Assembly: GCA_963768175.1 (NCBI GenBank)
Contig: CAVYGQ010000001.1
Location: 510,305 to 574,304 of the forward strand
Direction: 5' to 3'
From: Candidatus Doudnabacteria bacterium
Lineage (GTDB): Bacteria > Patescibacteriota > Doudnabacteria > UBA920
Length of the DNA: 64,000 nt
The position numbers were made by a program, and so were the translations under genes. Below, in pieces: positions 5,629 through 12,367 of the stretch; the first letter of the stretch is position 1, and the number at the start of each line of letters is the position of its first letter. The notes beneath the pieces were generated by a model. That model saw only the letters and a list, made by a program, of their open reading frames with translations, searched no databases and was not told where the DNA came from.

Positions 5629-6154
5629 AAGGTTTGATACTGATATACGGATTAATACTGACCCGCCTGCCTACGCCTTCTGCCAAATTTTGATGGATAT
5701 TGATAATAAAATCAATAACCAACATCCATCGGACAGGCACAGACGGCATTGGCGGGCAGGTGATACAGATAATACGGATGTGTGATATCAGTATTATCAG
5801 TATAATCCGCATGCATTAGTATATCGGTATCTTATAAATATTATAGCAAATTTTTGCGAAAAAAGCATTTTGAATAAAGTACCGGTAGTTAGCCCATTCA
5901 TGGGCTGTTATGTTTTCTTATGAAGACAGCTGATAAATCAGCTAACTACACTACATGGCTGCCAACATTGACAAAACGCCAATATTTATGCTATATTTGT
6001 AGCGCAAACCCGGAAGAAGCGGGGTTTTTATTTGAAAATATAGAACACGGATTTACGGATAAAGAACGGATCTACCGATATCTACCGATTCTAACAAACA
6101 ATATCCGTAGACATCCGTTGATCCGAATCCAATCAGTAGATCCGTGTTAATTTT

Positions 6155-8134
6155 ATGAAACGCGACAACATCCGCAACATCGCCATAATCGCCCACGTTG
6201 ACCACGGCAAGACTACTTTGGTTGACGCCATGCTCAAGCAAACCCATACGGTTAAGGACAACCCCGAGACCAAAGATTTAATTATGGACAGCATGGATTT
6301 GGAGCGCGAGCGCGGCATTACCATTCGGGCGAAAAACGCTTCGCTTATTTATAACGGCATTCACCCCGTTAAATCCGCCGAAGGCGGGGCTGCTTCGCAG
6401 CCATTTAACGGGGTGAAAATTAACCTCATAGATACGCCGGGCCACACGGATTTTGGCGGCGAAGTGGAGCGGACTTTGCGTATGGCCGACGGCGTACTTT
6501 TACTGGTGGACGCCAAAGAAGGCCCTATGCCGCAAACCAAATTCGTGCTTAAAAAAGCTTTGGAGCTCGGTCTTAAAGCCATTGTCGTAATTAATAAAGT
6601 AGATAAACCAGACGCACAGGTGGAAGAGTCCACCAATAAAACTTTTGATTTATTTGTAAAACTGGATGCCAAAGATCACCAACTGGATTTCCAAATTATT
6701 TACGCGGCGGGCAGTTTGGGTTTGGCCGATACCGATTTAGAAAGTTTAAGATCCAAAATCAAAAGCCATGCCGCGCCGGATGTTGCTCCCCTATTTGAGT
6801 CCATAATTAAATTTATTCCAGCACCCGACGTAAAACCTGAAGATCCTTTTGCCATGCTGGTTTTGGCTTTGGTTTACGACAACTACAAAGGCAAAATGGG
6901 CATTGGTAAAATTATTTCCGGCTCCATTAAAAAAGCGCAAACCATTTGCAGAATCAAGACCGACGGCCAGCGCGACAACGGCAAAATTACTTCCTTACAA
7001 ATGTATGAAGGTTTGGCGCCCGTGAACGTGGAAGAAGCCGTAGCCGGCGACATTGTGGCCATTGGCGGCTTTGACGACATTTCCATTGGCGAAACTTTAA
7101 CCGATCCCCTAAATCCCATCCATTTGGAGCCGGTAGAAATAGAGCCGCCCACAATTAAAATGACCTTTGGCGTGAACACTTCCCCGTTTGCCGGCAAAGA
7201 GGGCAAGTTTGTGACCTCCCGCAATTTGCGGCAGCGGCTTTACAAAGAGCTGGAAATAAACGTGGCGCTTAAAGTTGCCCCGTCCGAAGAAGGAGCCGAA
7301 AGCTTTTTGGTTAGCGGACGCGGCGAACTGCATTTGGGAGTTTTGATTGAAACGATGAGGAGAGAAGGTTTTGAACTGCAGGTTTCCCAGCCGCAGGTTA
7401 TTTACCATTATGCTCCAAAATCTCACCCCCACCTAGCCTCCCCCCTCAAGGGGGAGGAAAACAAAGTTTCCCTCCCTGGAGTGGAGGGGTCAGGGGAAGG
7501 TGATATGATTAAGCTTGAGCCCTACGAAATTGTCAGCATAGATGTGCCCAGCGAATATCAGGGCGCGGTAATAGAAAATTTGGGCAAGCGCGGCGGGGAA
7601 ATGCAAGGCCTGGACACCAGCTCAAGCGGCGAAATGCACGCGGAATATCTTATCCCCACCAGAGGGCTTATTGGCCTAAAAAGCTTATTGCTTACCCAAA
7701 CGCGCGGCACCGTAATAATGAACAATTTATTTGACAGCTATAAACCCGTACACGAAATAGATTCCCACGCCAATGACCACGGCAGTTTAATTTCCAGCGA
7801 AACCGGCGTATCCAACGCTTACGGCCTTAACAACGCGCAGGAGCGCGGCATCCTGTTTATCGGCCCAGCCGTGGATGTTTACGAAGGCATGGTAGTAGGA
7901 AAAAACTCTGTAGATACGGACTTGGAATTAAACGTCTGTAAAACTAAAAAACTCACCAACATCCGCTCCTCCGGCACGGACGAAGCCATAATCTTAACCC
8001 CTCCCCGCCCCATTGAGCTGGACTTTGCGTTGGAATACATCGGCCCTGACGAGTTGGTGGAAGTTACCCCCAAGAGCATTCGCATTCGCAAAAAAATCTT
8101 GAACGCCACCGAACGCAAACGCGCCGCCCGCTAA
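6155..8134 (+). CDS. typA: Translational GTPase TypA/BipA (carries two in-frame insertions)
   Basis: [13 protein letters not shown]1 motif, [20 protein letters not shown], and the BipA C-terminal domain. Length 659 aa versus about 600-610 for canonical BipA. Confidence 0.9.
6359..6418 (+). repeat. Palindromic element inserted in-frame in typA. It is a perfect 14-bp terminal inverted repeat ATTCACCCCGTTAAAT / ATTTAACGGGGTGAA enclosing two nested hairpins (CCGCCgaaGGCGG and GGCTGCttcGCAGCC).
   Basis: Seen in sequence. Encodes [18 protein letters not shown] inserted between YNG and [11 protein letters not shown] of the otherwise canonical G domain. AACGG is duplicated at both junctions. Confidence 0.65.
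7421..7504 (+). repeat. Second GC-rich hairpin-bearing in-frame insertion in typA. Hairpins are CCTCCCCC-TCAA-GGGGGAGG and CCCTCC-ctggagt-GGAGGG. Outer ends TCACCCCC...GGTGA resemble the first element.
   Basis: Encodes about 34 extra residues ([34 protein letters not shown]) between the conserved QVIY and IKLEPYE segments. Confidence 0.45.
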
Positions 8135-8136
8135 CC

Positions 8137-8200
8137 TACCTGTCATTCCGGCCTCCGAGCCGGAATCCATATCACGCAAAACCCCGCCAACCGGCGGGGT
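8137..8200. terminator. Bidirectional intrinsic terminator after typA. Main hairpin AAAACCCCGCC-AACC-GGCGGGGTTTT, preceded by a second hairpin ATTCCGGC-ctccga-GCCGGAAT.
   Basis: Perfect stems with an A-tract and a T-tract, so it works on both strands (typA on plus, the 8213 gene on minus). Confidence 0.6.
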
Positions 8201-8212
8201 TTTAAATTAAAG

Positions 8213-8965
8213 TCAAACTTCCAAATCAAAGGAAATATTTTTTTCTACCCACAGAAGTCCTTTTTTAGTTAAATGCGCGGAATCGTTCCGAAAATCTAAT
8301 CTACCATCAACATTTAATTCGTTTAGCTGCCGTCGCAAAACTCCCTTGTTAGTATATCCTGTCCAATCAAAAATATCGTCCAAAGAAATATTTTCCGGAT
8401 ATTTCTGGTAACAAAAAACAAGGACTTTTTCTTTTACATTTAACTTTGAATTTAGACATTTTAGCCGGCCACCAATTTCTTCAATTATTGGTACTTTTCG
8501 TTCAATAATCTTTTTAATTTCAGCCTGAGCTTCACAGGGAGTCATTTGCGTTTCTAAACGAACCAGCTCGGCAACAATCCAATTGGCTGCATTAAGCACA
8601 AATATAGAATCCACCTCATTTACGTCTACCGCACCTGGGTGTGCTACATTCCGCTTATTGCGAAAATCCAAAATAAGCTCAGCCAACCCGAGGATGTGAA
8701 AGCGTAAAGATTCATCGAGGCTTACATTTTTCCGCACAGCGGAAGCTATAACAAGTCGCTTAATTTGAGTCCCAATTGCAGTATACTTACTCGAATGTTT
8801 ATATTCTAAAATCCGAAAAACAATTTCTGCAAATCGTCCGCCGTCTAACTGACTTGGTTCCCAACGCCCAAGAAAATACTGCTGGTGCAGTTTTTGAAAT
8901 TCAGTTTGAAGATCATTGACTAGACTGCCCGGCAAATTACTTAGGTGTTGGGTTAGTGGGTTCAT
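8213..8965 (-). CDS. Hypothetical protein with a putative HEPN-like Rx4-6H motif (FRNKRNVAHPG); possible Abi or toxin-like nuclease
   Basis: 250-aa ORF in a low-GC islet. The R-x6-H motif is embedded in a predicted helical region. The assignment rests on the motif only. Confidence 0.45.
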   Translation of the reverse strand: MNPLTQHLSNLPGSLVNDLQTEFQKLHQQYFLGRWEPSQLDGGRFAEIVFRILEYKHSSKYTAIGTQIKRLVIASAVRKNVSLDESLRFHILGLAELILDFRNKRNVAHPGAVDVNEVDSIFVLNAANWIVAELVRLETQMTPCEAQAEIKKIIERKVPIIEEIGGRLKCLNSKLNVKEKVLVFCYQKYPENISLDDIFDWTGYTNKGVLRRQLNELNVDGRLDFRNDSAHLTKKGLLWVEKNISFDLEV

Positions 8966-9350
8966 TGGTTAGAAATTTACTAAAAAATTTTTCCCCTGTT
9001 TGTGAAAGATCGAGGCTCCCATCTATCGACCTCACATACCCATCCTTAATTGCTCTACTTAATAATGTATTCGCATATTTACCATCAAATTTTCCGTTCT
9101 TCCAGCCTTCTTTTAATTCTACTTCAGTGAGTGGCTGCCGTTTCAAAATTTTTTCGTAATACCCAACAATAACACCAATTTTTTCTTGCCCCGATTTAAA
9201 ATCTTTACCCTTTATAATTTCTGCCAAGGCAGGTTGTTTACCTTTGCCCGTTCCAAGATCCGTGGTTTGAATTCCACCCTTTTCAAGTATGGTGATCCTT
9301 TTCTCGTGATCATTGAGTTGTTGAACTATTTGCTCTAAGTTGTGTGCCAT
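8937..9350 (-). CDS. Hypothetical small protein with a helical N-terminus and a possible winged-helix segment (TLLSRAIKDGYVR)
   Basis: 137-aa ORF that overlaps the downstream gene by 29 bp, suggesting an operon. Confidence 0.45.
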   Translation of the reverse strand: MAHNLEQIVQQLNDHEKRITILEKGGIQTTDLGTGKGKQPALAEIIKGKDFKSGQEKIGVIVGYYEKILKRQPLTEVELKEGWKNGKFDGKYANTLLSRAIKDGYVRSIDGSLDLSQTGEKFFSKFLTNEPTNPTPK

Positions 9351-9378
9351 AATAATTAATTAATGCTAATATGTAGAC

Positions 9379-9795
9379 CTATTTTCTTTCTGCGTAAGCC
9401 CATTTTTCTTTCCCTTCAGGATTTTGAGCAGGGACTCGAACTAAAACTCGATTTTGAACCAAACGTATCAACGCTGTTGAAATAACTTGGCGCGTATAAT
9501 GGAAGCCGGCTTGTTGTAACTTCTGTAAAACCTGGGGTAAAGTCTTCGGACTTTTTAAATCACCGTCTTTTAATAAAAGCAAAATTCCACCCTTTGGCCC
9601 TTTAAACTTAAGCACTTTTGGATGCTCCTTATTCTTTGCTGTTAGTACAGAACTCTCCCCCATATTCTTAGCTAATTCGGTTAAAAGCGATTGTATTTCG
9701 CTAATAATATCAAGGTTTCTTTTGTTTGTATCCATAAATATATGTTTAATTATTACATCTTGATTAGTATATACCGTATTCTTCCTTATTGTCAA
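9379..9795 (-). CDS. Hypothetical small protein with a C-terminal winged-helix DNA-binding-like segment (BlaI/MarR-like: QVISTALIRLVQNRVLVRV)
   Basis: 138-aa ORF. A likelier start is the internal Met at about 9735. Confidence 0.45.
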   Translation of the reverse strand: MTIRKNTVYTNQDVIIKHIFMDTNKRNLDIISEIQSLLTELAKNMGESSVLTAKNKEHPKVLKFKGPKGGILLLLKDGDLKSPKTLPQVLQKLQQAGFHYTRQVISTALIRLVQNRVLVRVPAQNPEGKEKWAYAERK

Positions 9796-10116
9796 GGGCT
9801 AAATTTAAAACTAAAATGATTACACAAGTAAACAAATTATTAAATACGTTCAATGAAAGTAAATAAACCTTTCAAATAAAGCTAAATTTGGAATTTAAAA
9901 TAAACAGTTTTGTTAATCTTAATAATCACATAAAAATGTCCAGCTACTAACTTTGGACCTAATATAAAGGGTCACATGCTTTTCATAACCCTAAAATGAC
10001 TATTTTGGGCAGGGGGGTTATAATACCCATATAACCATATGTGCGGAGCGTTTTCCATTTTACATCCTATGGCCAAGCTCTAATTCGCGCGAATAGGAGA
10101 ACGCTAAAAATCATAA

Positions 10117-10147
10117 AACCCCGGGGCTTTGGCTTCGGGGTTTTGGT
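10117..10147 (-). terminator. Hairpin plus U-tract immediately after the hicA stop
   Basis: AAAACCCCG...CGGGGTTTT stem with a T/A run on both sides. Confidence 0.4.
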
Positions 10148-10341
10148 TATTTTAGATGTATTGTCGGCAGCCCTAAATCTTTACAAATCTTTTTGCCTAA
10201 AAAAGTGTTTATTTCTTTATGTCTTGGTACCGCGGAAACTTGGCCCGAGGTCGGATTAATGAATATTGTGTGCGAACTGCCCTCACGCTCAACTAAACAA
10301 CCAAAAGATAAAATATACCTCACCAGGGCTTTACGCTTCAT
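10147..10341 (-). CDS. hicA: HicA family toxin (mRNA interferase)
   Basis: 64 aa with MKRKALVRYILSFGCLVEREGSSHTIFINPTSGQVSAVPRH, matching the HicA consensus (K.L....G....R..GSH..F.HP.....T.P.H). Confidence 0.75.
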   Translation of the reverse strand: MKRKALVRYILSFGCLVEREGSSHTIFINPTSGQVSAVPRHKEINTFLGKKICKDLGLPTIHLK

Positions 10342-10346
10342 AAAAG

Positions 10347-10555
10347 CTAAGCTAAAACAAGGGTCTCTTTGGTAACTTTAGCTTTGCCCAATTCCTTGCG
10401 AAAATATTTATTGCGCGCGGACAATACTAAAGTCAAAGCTTCTTTTAAGTTCTTTTCGGCTTCTTTTTTTGTCCGCCCTTGGGTGTTGGCCCCGGAACTT
10501 CCAATACCCACGCGGAATAATATTTGCCTGATTTTTTATAAATTGCCGTATACAT
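10347..10555 (-). pseudogene. hicB: HicB-family antitoxin interrupted by a -1 frameshift at a GGGG run near 10490
   Basis: Hand translation: frame 1 gives MYTAIYKKSGKYYSAWVLEVPG, then the reading frame shifts to ANTQGRTKKEAEKNLKEALTLVLSARNKYFRKELGKAKVTKETLVLA. The stop lies 5 bp upstream of the hicA ATG. Confidence 0.5.
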
Positions 10556-10634
10556 GAAAAGGTTTTGTTAGCTTAACTTAATATTATATCGCCTCCGGCA
10601 TACTGTCAATCGCCTTCCCCCATAAAGCACGCAA

Positions 10635-11670: not shown

Positions 11671-11746
11671 GGGTTGGTAGCTCAGTTGGTAGAGCAGCGG
11701 CCTCTTAAGCCGCTTGTCGTGGGTTCGATCCCCACCCAACCCACCA
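11671..11746 (+). tRNA. tRNA-Lys(CTT), CCA encoded
   Basis: Hand fold: acceptor GGGTTGG/CCAACCC, D-arm GCTCAGTTGGTAGAGC, anticodon stem GCGGC/GCCGC with loop CTCTTAA, T-arm GTGGGTTCGATCCCCAC, then ACCA. Confidence 0.9.
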
Positions 11747-12290: not shown

Positions 12291-12367
12291 TGGTGCCCTC
12301 GGCAGGAATTGAACCCACATTACTGGTTCCGAAGACCAGCGCTCTAATCCATTGAGCTACGAGGGCT
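12291..12367 (-). tRNA. tRNA-Arg(TCG), CCA encoded
   Basis: Reverse complement folds as acceptor GCCCTCG/CGAGGGC, D-arm GCTC-AATGGATTA-GAGC, anticodon stem CTGGT/ACCAG with loop CTTCGGA, T-arm GTGGG-TTCAATT-CCTGC (two G-U pairs), then ACCA. Confidence 0.75.

Follow-up and report, generated by a model that had tools for sequence, protein, structure and literature searches.

A low-GC insertion between holA and typA in a Candidatus Doudnabacteria genome encodes a predicted HEPN-type protein and small, variable partners

What is encoded by the block of low guanine-plus-cytosine (GC) content that lies beside typA in a genome of Candidatus Doudnabacteria (GenBank assembly GCA_963768175.1, contig CAVYGQ010000001.1)? 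The window analysed here comprises 64,000 nucleotides (nt) of the forward strand of this contig (positions 510,305 to 574,304), and between its positions 8213 and 9795 it holds three minus-strand genes, called A, B and C below, for which the original prediction, made from the sequence alone, had proposed a small defence or addiction island, possibly a HEPN-toxin/winged-helix module. That reading is supported by the present analysis, although the roles of toxin and antitoxin are what we infer. The explanation to which we give the greatest weight, and which we hold to be reasonably probable, is that the cassette formed by these genes is an uncharacterised AbiJ-like HEPN toxin or conflict module of the abortive infection (Abi) type. 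The features on which the argument draws are the following:

8213–8965, minus strand: gene A, 250 residues, a HEPN-like domain followed by a C-terminal winged helix; the conserved core of the cassette.
8492–8965, minus strand: HEPN-like domain of A (residues 1–158), from the structural model and its fold matches in the PDB.
8639–8662, minus strand: predicted catalytic motif R102-N-K-R-N-V-A-H109 (Rx6H), from conservation in relatives.
8237–8437, minus strand: winged helix-turn-helix of A (residues 177–243), from Foldseek.
8937–9350, minus strand: gene B, 137 residues, an N-terminal coiled-coil helix (DHExRxxxLE), a variable linker and a conserved C-terminal domain.
8937–8965, minus strand: overlap of the B stop and the A start, 29 nt, a probable site of translational coupling.
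9379–9735, minus strand: gene C, 118 residues, an N-terminal helix, a linker and a putative winged helix; no other gene of the operon varies as much.
9766–9795, minus strand: sigma-70-like promoter, TTGACA-18 nt-TATACT, 11 of 12 consensus matches.
8178–8204, common to the convergent typA and gene A: GC-rich stem-loop terminator (AAAACCCCGCCGG/TTGGCGGGGTTTT), read from the sequence.

The first question is whether A belongs to the HEPN proteins, and for this assignment the sequence motifs are a stronger argument than the fold matches. The motif DFRNxRNxxH (residues 100–109) is invariant in 44 close homologues, and in 131 relatives of 23–53% identity E47, H109 and D119 are invariant and F45, R88, R102, R105, W129, E133 and R136 are at least 90% conserved; given this conservation, the RNKRNVAH at residues 102–109, singled out by the original prediction, is beyond a chance match. 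Active HEPN domains are built on a core of four helices, the second and third of which are separated by an insert (PMC3710099), and they also present a polar residue after the arginine of their R/H motif and an acidic residue in helix 2, often as part of an Ex3[KR] motif (PMC3710099). In A, R102 and H109 are separated by six residues, the arginine is followed by the polar N103, the motif comes after helix 85–100, and E47-IVF-R51 forms an Ex3[KR]-type motif within helix 41–58; the conserved R/H pair sits where the literature on HEPN domains puts such a pair (PMC3710099). As far as its sequence can tell, A bears every hallmark of an active HEPN ribonuclease (RNase).

The same residues bear on a different explanation, in which A would be a non-catalytic HEPN-like regulator that binds nucleic acids in the manner of MtlR or Roquin, and the cassette a set of winged-helix factors controlling neighbouring mobile or defence genes. 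All of the cassette proteins appear to bear a winged-helix-like domain, some of the fold and sequence matches of full-length A are RNA-binding winged helices (SelB and ribosomal protein S19e), and HEPN domains devoid of catalysis do exist (PMC3710099). However, no residues of the family are more conserved than those at the R, N, H and E positions by which catalytic HEPN domains are defined, whereas such positions are typically lost in the non-catalytic HEPN families (PMC3710099), and no conserved regulatory target is found beside the cassette, since its flanks differ everywhere. A regulator of this kind seems to us very unlikely, and A is treated in what follows as a predicted RNase.

The structural models point in the same direction. 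Single-chain AlphaFold (AF2) models were obtained for full-length A and for its residues 1–160. In the full-length model, with a predicted local distance difference test score (pLDDT) of 84.5, helices run over residues 13–32, 38–58, 70–79, 85–100, 115–139 and 143–155, followed by a beta-hairpin and then by the winged helix at residues 177–243, while residues 1–160 alone gave a pLDDT of 87.5 and a predicted template modelling score of 0.86, with helix 2 at 41–58. The N-terminal domain is thus modelled as four long helices, with an insert at residues 59–84, which includes the short helix 70–79, between helices 2 and 3. The original prediction had staked itself beforehand on a HEPN fold with an R/H catalytic pair: the pair is present, and the best fold matches of the domain in the PDB, with weak scores, are HEPN proteins, i.e., TT1696 (1ufb), 1wol, 2hsb, sacsin (3o10), 4nqf, three Csm6 entries and AbiV. 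The core fold with its insert, the R/H motif and the acidic residue of helix 2, which count among the defining features of the HEPN superfamily together with a metal-independent endoribonuclease activity from the composite active site of a dimer, are all found in A, the fold statistics being weak, and A very probably has the HEPN fold. As for the C-terminal winged helix of A, a feature that the original prediction had missed, Foldseek matches it to the DNA-binding domains of MarR, IclR, MepR and PadR with a probability of ~1.0 and a root-mean-square deviation of 2–4 Å over ~70 residues.

To which HEPN family could A then belong? The profile searches suggested by the original prediction returned no Pfam match for A itself at E<=1, and Abi_C (PF14355, the HEPN family of AbiJ), whose gathering threshold A does not reach, is the commonest sub-threshold Pfam match among the relatives, albeit a weak one (10 of 131, best E 0.02). 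From the motifs we take A to be a protein of the HEPN type that resembles AbiJ at the level of these motifs but lies outside the Pfam family Abi_C.

The family to which A belongs is both large and little described. In a collection of 5.8 billion proteins, 170 relatives were found; the 120 listed are 60–79% identical to A and nearly all ~250 residues long, and their sources, where named, are Patescibacteria metagenome-assembled genomes (MAGs). A profile search of 1.84 billion cluster representatives, with the clusters of the family defined at 50% identity, recovered 1021 with E<=1e-3, of which 643 reach E<=1e-10; most have 245–265 residues. More distant members are also present beyond the Patescibacteria (e.g., in a Solirubrobacterales MAG). 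The named members are all annotated as "hypothetical protein". None of A, B and C has an above-threshold match in Pfam, NCBIfam, PADLOC or PHROGs, which agrees with the earlier statement that no housekeeping function can be recognised in them, and among the distant relatives of A and the partners examined PADLOC returned a single weak match, to the C-terminal part of a CARF model, with no Pfam match for those partners. The viral library BFVD yielded winged-helix proteins only, a sequence-profile search of the PDB with A gave nothing but S19e at E 0.12, and no description of the family or of its partners was found in the literature searched. Three of the MAGs that carry the cassette (L012, L014 and L019, one of them a single 1.34-Mb contig) are labelled "uncultured Gammaproteobacteria bacterium", and their A proteins are 71–74% identical to the Patescibacteria ones; the label could be a taxonomic mislabelling.

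The second question is what accompanies A. Two partners of ~137 residues, both with winged-helix segments, had been described in the three overlapping genes of the original prediction. The open reading frames (ORFs) are as it gave them, but only A and B overlap, by 29 nt, while B and C are 28 nt apart, and only B has 137 residues. The ORF of C, when started at TTG, covers 9379–9795 (minus strand, 138 residues), but the start is most likely the ATG at 9735, which gives 118 residues, because the TTG at 9795 coincides with the first base of the promoter −35 hexamer; an independent gene call on a near-identical Logan contig (99.94%, two differences) also gives 118 residues. The cassette opens with its own promoter-like site, continues with C, B and A, in this order, and ends at the typA terminator.

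The last nine codons of B are read in another frame of the conserved N-terminus of A, and the B stop lies ~24–29 nt inside A at all of the nine B–A junctions examined, an arrangement in which B is probably translationally coupled to A. The two genes differ in their rate of change: in each of the 78 genome pairs compared, A shows the higher conservation (mean identity 69.8%, vs 49.4% for B), and C varies even more than B. For B, 37 relatives at 46–62% identity were found, and neither B nor these relatives match anything in Pfam or the PDB, except for coiled-coil noise on the N-terminal helix; the C-terminal domain of B carries the motifs KQxTLxEIIKGKxFKSGQEK, WxxGKFDGKY and DLSQTGExFF. For C, only one relative (51% identity) was found among the 5.8 billion proteins, and it sits in a four-gene cassette whose last gene encodes 245 residues. 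The matches of B to MkoB (E 0.0059 over 38 residues) and of C to Cas6 (E 0.031) in PADLOC (PADLOC-DB v2) are weak and not significant.

The alignment of C-like proteins gives sub-threshold matches to FadR/GntR (0.13), AspA (0.15) and BlaI (0.56) in the PDB, and to Penicillinase_R in Pfam (0.0024, in two of eight members). In profile–profile comparisons, the C-terminal domains of B (70%, E 4e-5) and of the partner group s2 (E 1e-4) resemble the winged helix of A, B and s2 are paralogous (97.5%, E 6e-12), and B and C present no detectable paralogy past the N-terminal helix. That B and C are winged-helix proteins is plausible but not established, because the evidence is all sub-threshold.

Across genomes, the pair of partners that had been supposed gives way to a variable array. 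In all of the ~20 other contexts A is adjoined by one to four small orphan genes, which lie upstream except in L031, and the partners fall into five groups, namely B, s2 (~136 residues), s1 (~130 residues), C-like (78–133 residues) and F3 (164–196 residues); clustering by BLAST joins B with s2 and s1 with the C-like group, and leaves F3 apart. An apparent polymorphism of a partner gene between L028 and L029 was rejected, as it is a gene-calling difference on identical DNA. In L015 (5750–6139, equivalent to 6750–7139 of L003) an orphan ORF of 129 residues has a 4-nt overlap with the stop of the A homologue, and genes for a Dcm methylase and an HNH protein come after it; this ORF may be an extra downstream component of the cassette in this lineage.

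Where the cassette resides in other genomes provides the third line of evidence. A TTGACA...TAnAnT-like site stands 35–60 nt upstream of the first small gene in ~10 other cassettes, as read by eye, and the flanks of the cassette differ in every genome examined. In L013 (2458–6922) and L021 (495–6934), the entire cassette with its promoter-like site is placed between hsdM and hsdS of a type I restriction-modification (R-M) system, the stop of A overlaps the start codon of hsdS (ATGA), and in L021 HsdR lies upstream of the cassette. In L034, which has the closest homologue of A, the cassette is directly 3' of a type III mod/res pair, and in L023 HigB/Gp49 and a type III Res helicase follow it. 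Elsewhere it is found amid genes for a ParE-like toxin, SNase, Dcm and HNH (L003/L015), near a serine recombinase, Dam, T5orf172 and an Abi_C protein (L010/L011), near an AAA_15/AAA_21 ATPase (L018), near a DNA methylase, DUF6996/6997 and a weak HEPN_Cthe2314-like protein (L012), and near integrase and transposase fragments (L031). Among the contexts listed here, the cassette is often beside R-M, toxin–antitoxin (TA) or Abi genes, and its best explanation is that of a horizontally mobile, self-contained operon. The protein of L012 (157 residues, 5805–6278) is directly 3' of the A homologue and scores 25.1 bits with HEPN_Cthe2314 (E 2e-5), below the cutoff of 27.1; it may represent a second HEPN gene at that locus.

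These contexts raise the possibility that A is an accessory of R-M systems, i.e., a latent suicide RNase held by the R-M complex, as PrrC is with EcoprrI, rather than part of an autonomous module. The placement between hsdM and hsdS with the overlap of stop and start codons, the position right after type III mod/res in L034 and the fact that PrrC and RloC are HEPN RNases encoded in hsd loci (PMC3710099) all speak for such a dependence, but it fits two or three loci and not the window: most of the cassettes, including that of the window, have no adjacent R-M genes and possess their own promoter-like site, and A lacks the ABC-ATPase domain of PrrC. We regard such an accessory role as very improbable, and the autonomous conflict module as the better account of the locus.

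Was the cassette acquired by this genome, or is it part of a conserved neighbourhood of typA? The GC content of 8213–9795 is 0.371, compared with a window mean of 0.451 (standard deviation 0.032, equal-length windows), as the original prediction had noticed, and this is the lowest-GC 1.6 kb of the 64 kb, with all of the equally low windows overlapping it; the GC content at third codon positions, likewise the lowest in the window, is 0.31–0.32 in A, B and C, vs 0.47 in holA and 0.56 in typA. Two metagenomic contigs, L036 (95 kb) and L037, which were found through a search with the holA protein (76–77% identical; 74–79% identity of the DNA over holA and typA), have the site empty: holA and typA are convergent and 148–290 nt apart, neither hicBA nor the cassette stands between them, and the flanks are kept on both sides. 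The ~2.4 kb of 8205–10634 is therefore an insertion, which is larger than the islet of 1.8 kb first described and includes the hicBA genes. The terminator of typA is kept in L036, and therefore belongs to the core genome and not to the island.

Both of the marks of a genomic island, i.e., a site that is empty in relatives and a deviant composition, are found here. The original prediction had named synteny of the trio with typA across the lineage as evidence against an island; the two relatives have the empty site, and the flanks of the cassette elsewhere are different. A housekeeping trio syntenic with typA is refuted by the empty holA–typA site. No second copy of the cassette was found within the 64 kb of the window. 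Two tRNA genes lie on the holA side, tRNA-Lys(CTT) at 11671–11746 (plus strand) and tRNA-Arg(TCG) at 12291–12366 (minus strand), and neither is the insertion site of the island. The product of typA (659 residues) has an insertion of ~17 residues in its GTPase domain, between the switch region and the DTPGH motif (window 6359–6412, plus strand), which is absent from the 643-residue orthologue of L036, and a second variable insert further downstream.

How might such a cassette work? In the mechanism that we propose, the effector would be A, a predicted metal-independent HEPN endoribonuclease of the AbiJ/Abi_C-like kind with a C-terminal winged helix, which may dimerise through its HEPN domain and arrest growth. 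The small upstream proteins, each with an N-terminal coiled-coil helix and a winged-helix-like domain, would bind A and hold it inactive, and/or repress the operon, in the manner of an antitoxin or of a sensor, possibly through the coiled-coil helix or through pairing or competition with the homologous winged helix of A. B would probably be made in a fixed proportion to A, as a result of translational coupling. The loss or displacement of a partner, for example upon phage infection or the failure of a neighbouring R-M system, would free the RNase and stop growth, following the logic of TA and Abi systems. The RNase activity, the toxicity, the neutralisation by B and C, the trigger and the role in defence are all inferred here, and that B directly neutralises A is a possibility that we place slightly below an even chance.

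A more ambitious version of this mechanism is tentative, and we rate it as rather unlikely. The cassette may represent a multi-component defence architecture, widespread in Patescibacteria and reaching other phyla, in which a conserved effector composed of HEPN and winged-helix domains is kept within a hetero-oligomer by "sensor-antitoxins", i.e., paralogous coiled-coil/winged-helix proteins that form an exchangeable array and evolve fast. It would be a protein-only counterpart of the cage of the type IX retron, where a winged-helix protein and multicopy single-stranded DNA (msDNA) keep the HEPN active site encircled up to its release by a phage nuclease (bioRxiv 10.64898/2026.07.14.738597). 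If this were true, each partner could sense a different cue from an invader, or rival the winged helix of A for one nucleic-acid ligand.

Several points weigh against the conflict module with a HEPN toxin. No significant match of A to any HEPN family was obtained, and A hits no model of Pfam, NCBIfam, PADLOC or PHROGs even at E<=1. The Foldseek scores of the HEPN matches are weak (E 0.2–4, TM on the target 0.44–0.61), helical bundles are prone to false fold matches, and model confidence is lowest in the loop that bears the motif (pLDDT 49–58). When A was aligned by hhalign with the genuine Abi_C protein of L011 (Pfam E 6e-9), the result had an E of 0.074 and a very low probability; in favour of the HEPN assignment, this alignment pairs GGRFAE with KGKFEEA and DFRNKRNVAH with DAVRNNQSLAH, at identical Rx6H spacing. 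A search by tblastn with A gave no match in the collections of phages and plasmids, a search of the cassette promoter for an operator-like palindrome gave none, and in L001, L009 and L028 the neighbours of the cassette are housekeeping or unknown genes only. Finally, an array of one to four partners is a poor fit to a simple two-gene TA module.

This last point also bears on whether the cassette is a pure addiction module, which would stabilise itself or its island by post-segregational killing and have no role in phage defence. Its layout resembles that of a type II TA system, with a small upstream gene overlapping a conserved downstream gene for a putative toxin, it adjoins hicBA, and it is scattered among genomes with varied flanks. 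A type II module is a two-gene operon in which a small antitoxin gene adjoins or overlaps that of the toxin, and its toxin is neutralised through direct binding by the antitoxin; in the cassettes the B–A overlap is conserved, and two to five genes with a variable set of partners are present. Three to five genes in place of two speak against addiction alone, and the location between hsdM and hsdS or beside R-M and Abi genes in many loci is a pattern typical of defence genes. The TA and Abi roles are not mutually exclusive. Addiction on its own appears unlikely, and a conflict module of the abortive-infection type is retained as the preferred reading.

The rest of the insertion is occupied by a second module, the features of which are these:

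8205–10634: low-GC insertion (hicBA and the C-B-A cassette), ~2.4 kb, from the typA terminator to the holA stop codon.
10147–10341, minus strand: hicA toxin gene, a separate neighbouring module, with its own terminator-like stem-loop at 10114–10145.
10347–10555, minus strand: hicB antitoxin gene, frameshifted in this assembly.

The hicBA pair that had been reported next to the trio is present, with hicA confirmed by Pfam (HicA_toxin, E 1.9e-9) and by phrog_353 (E 2.6e-13), but hicB is interrupted. HicB is recognisable through a weak match to phrog_497 and through an intact HicB-like form of 69 residues in L008, and its frameshift, near 10493, corresponds to G4 in the window vs G5 in L008 (99.94% identity, two differences); this is either a homopolymer error of the assembly or a real loss of the antitoxin beside an intact hicA. 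The pair carries its own promoter-like site and terminator, and it does not belong to the cassette, since the gene tables of all the other cassette contexts lack it. An AT-rich spacer of 350 bp (9796–10146, GC 0.32) with imperfect inverted repeats (9970–9991 with 10015–10036, and 10047–10056 with 10096–10105) separates the hicA terminator from the promoter of the cassette; it has no ORF and no match in Rfam, and two modules acquired independently may meet there.

What the locus adds to present knowledge can be put as follows. Patescibacteria (the Candidate Phyla Radiation, CPR) have tiny genomes and few matches to the catalogued defence systems. The parts of the cassette are of known kinds, i.e., a HEPN toxin, winged-helix partners and a location in defence islands, while neither the family nor any of its partners is represented in Pfam (above threshold), NCBIfam or PADLOC; for a variable array of partners, some of them akin to the winged helix of the effector itself, no described counterpart was found. 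The family of A is large (the 1021 clusters given above), uniform in length, and found repeatedly in or beside R-M and toxin loci. If validated, it would constitute a new family of HEPN effectors with an unusual regulatory layer of variable small winged-helix partners, and a tractable case of the silencing of a HEPN toxin by means other than MNT, CARF, an RNA antitoxin or a retron. The locus also offers a clean case, within a CPR genome, of an insertion of defined extent (2.4 kb) for which an empty site serves as control.

Among the known systems, AbiJ/Abi_C (PF14355) shares with A a helical HEPN-type domain with R-N-x5-H at the same spacing, the fusion of HEPN to a second, probably nucleic-acid-binding domain, and a location near R-M genes. 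On the other hand, the order of the domains is reversed, as A has an N-terminal HEPN domain and a C-terminal winged helix, whereas AbiJ has N-terminal AbiJ-NTD domains, and AbiJ acts as a single gene, whereas the A family is always accompanied by small partners; the mechanism of AbiJ itself is not known (PMC13064643).

The HEPN-MNT systems also combine a putative HEPN RNase toxin with a small partner in one operon, and are likewise mobile and borne on islands. The partners here, however, are one to four proteins with coiled-coil and winged-helix-like parts, and no match to the nucleotidyltransferase family was obtained for B, C or the other partners; a HEPN-MNT system was rejected on account of this lack of a nucleotidyltransferase signature. 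HicAB is a small mobile TA module that occupies the same insertion, but its proteins are unrelated to those of the cassette and it is served by a promoter-like site and a terminator of its own. With PrrC and RloC the likeness is that of a HEPN RNase gene inside an hsd operon, as seen for the cassette in L013 and L021, and the differences are the missing ABC-ATPase domain of A and the possession of partners by a cassette that is mostly found outside R-M loci.

A type IX retron would carry a reverse transcriptase and an msr/msd non-coding RNA beside its HEPN and winged-helix genes. A retron in the strict sense was rejected, as the island consists of hicBA and the trio only, no reverse-transcriptase Pfam label is found in the neighbouring contexts, and no Rfam match reaches the gathering score in the island. 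The type IX retron (Retron-Kva2) is nonetheless the nearest mechanistic precedent for the silencing proposed here, given that it too pairs a HEPN nuclease with a winged-helix protein (bioRxiv 10.64898/2026.07.14.738597). The two differ in that the HEPN protein of the retron lacks the canonical Rx4-6H motif, which A possesses, and in that the winged-helix protein of the retron has two extra domains that bind HEPN.

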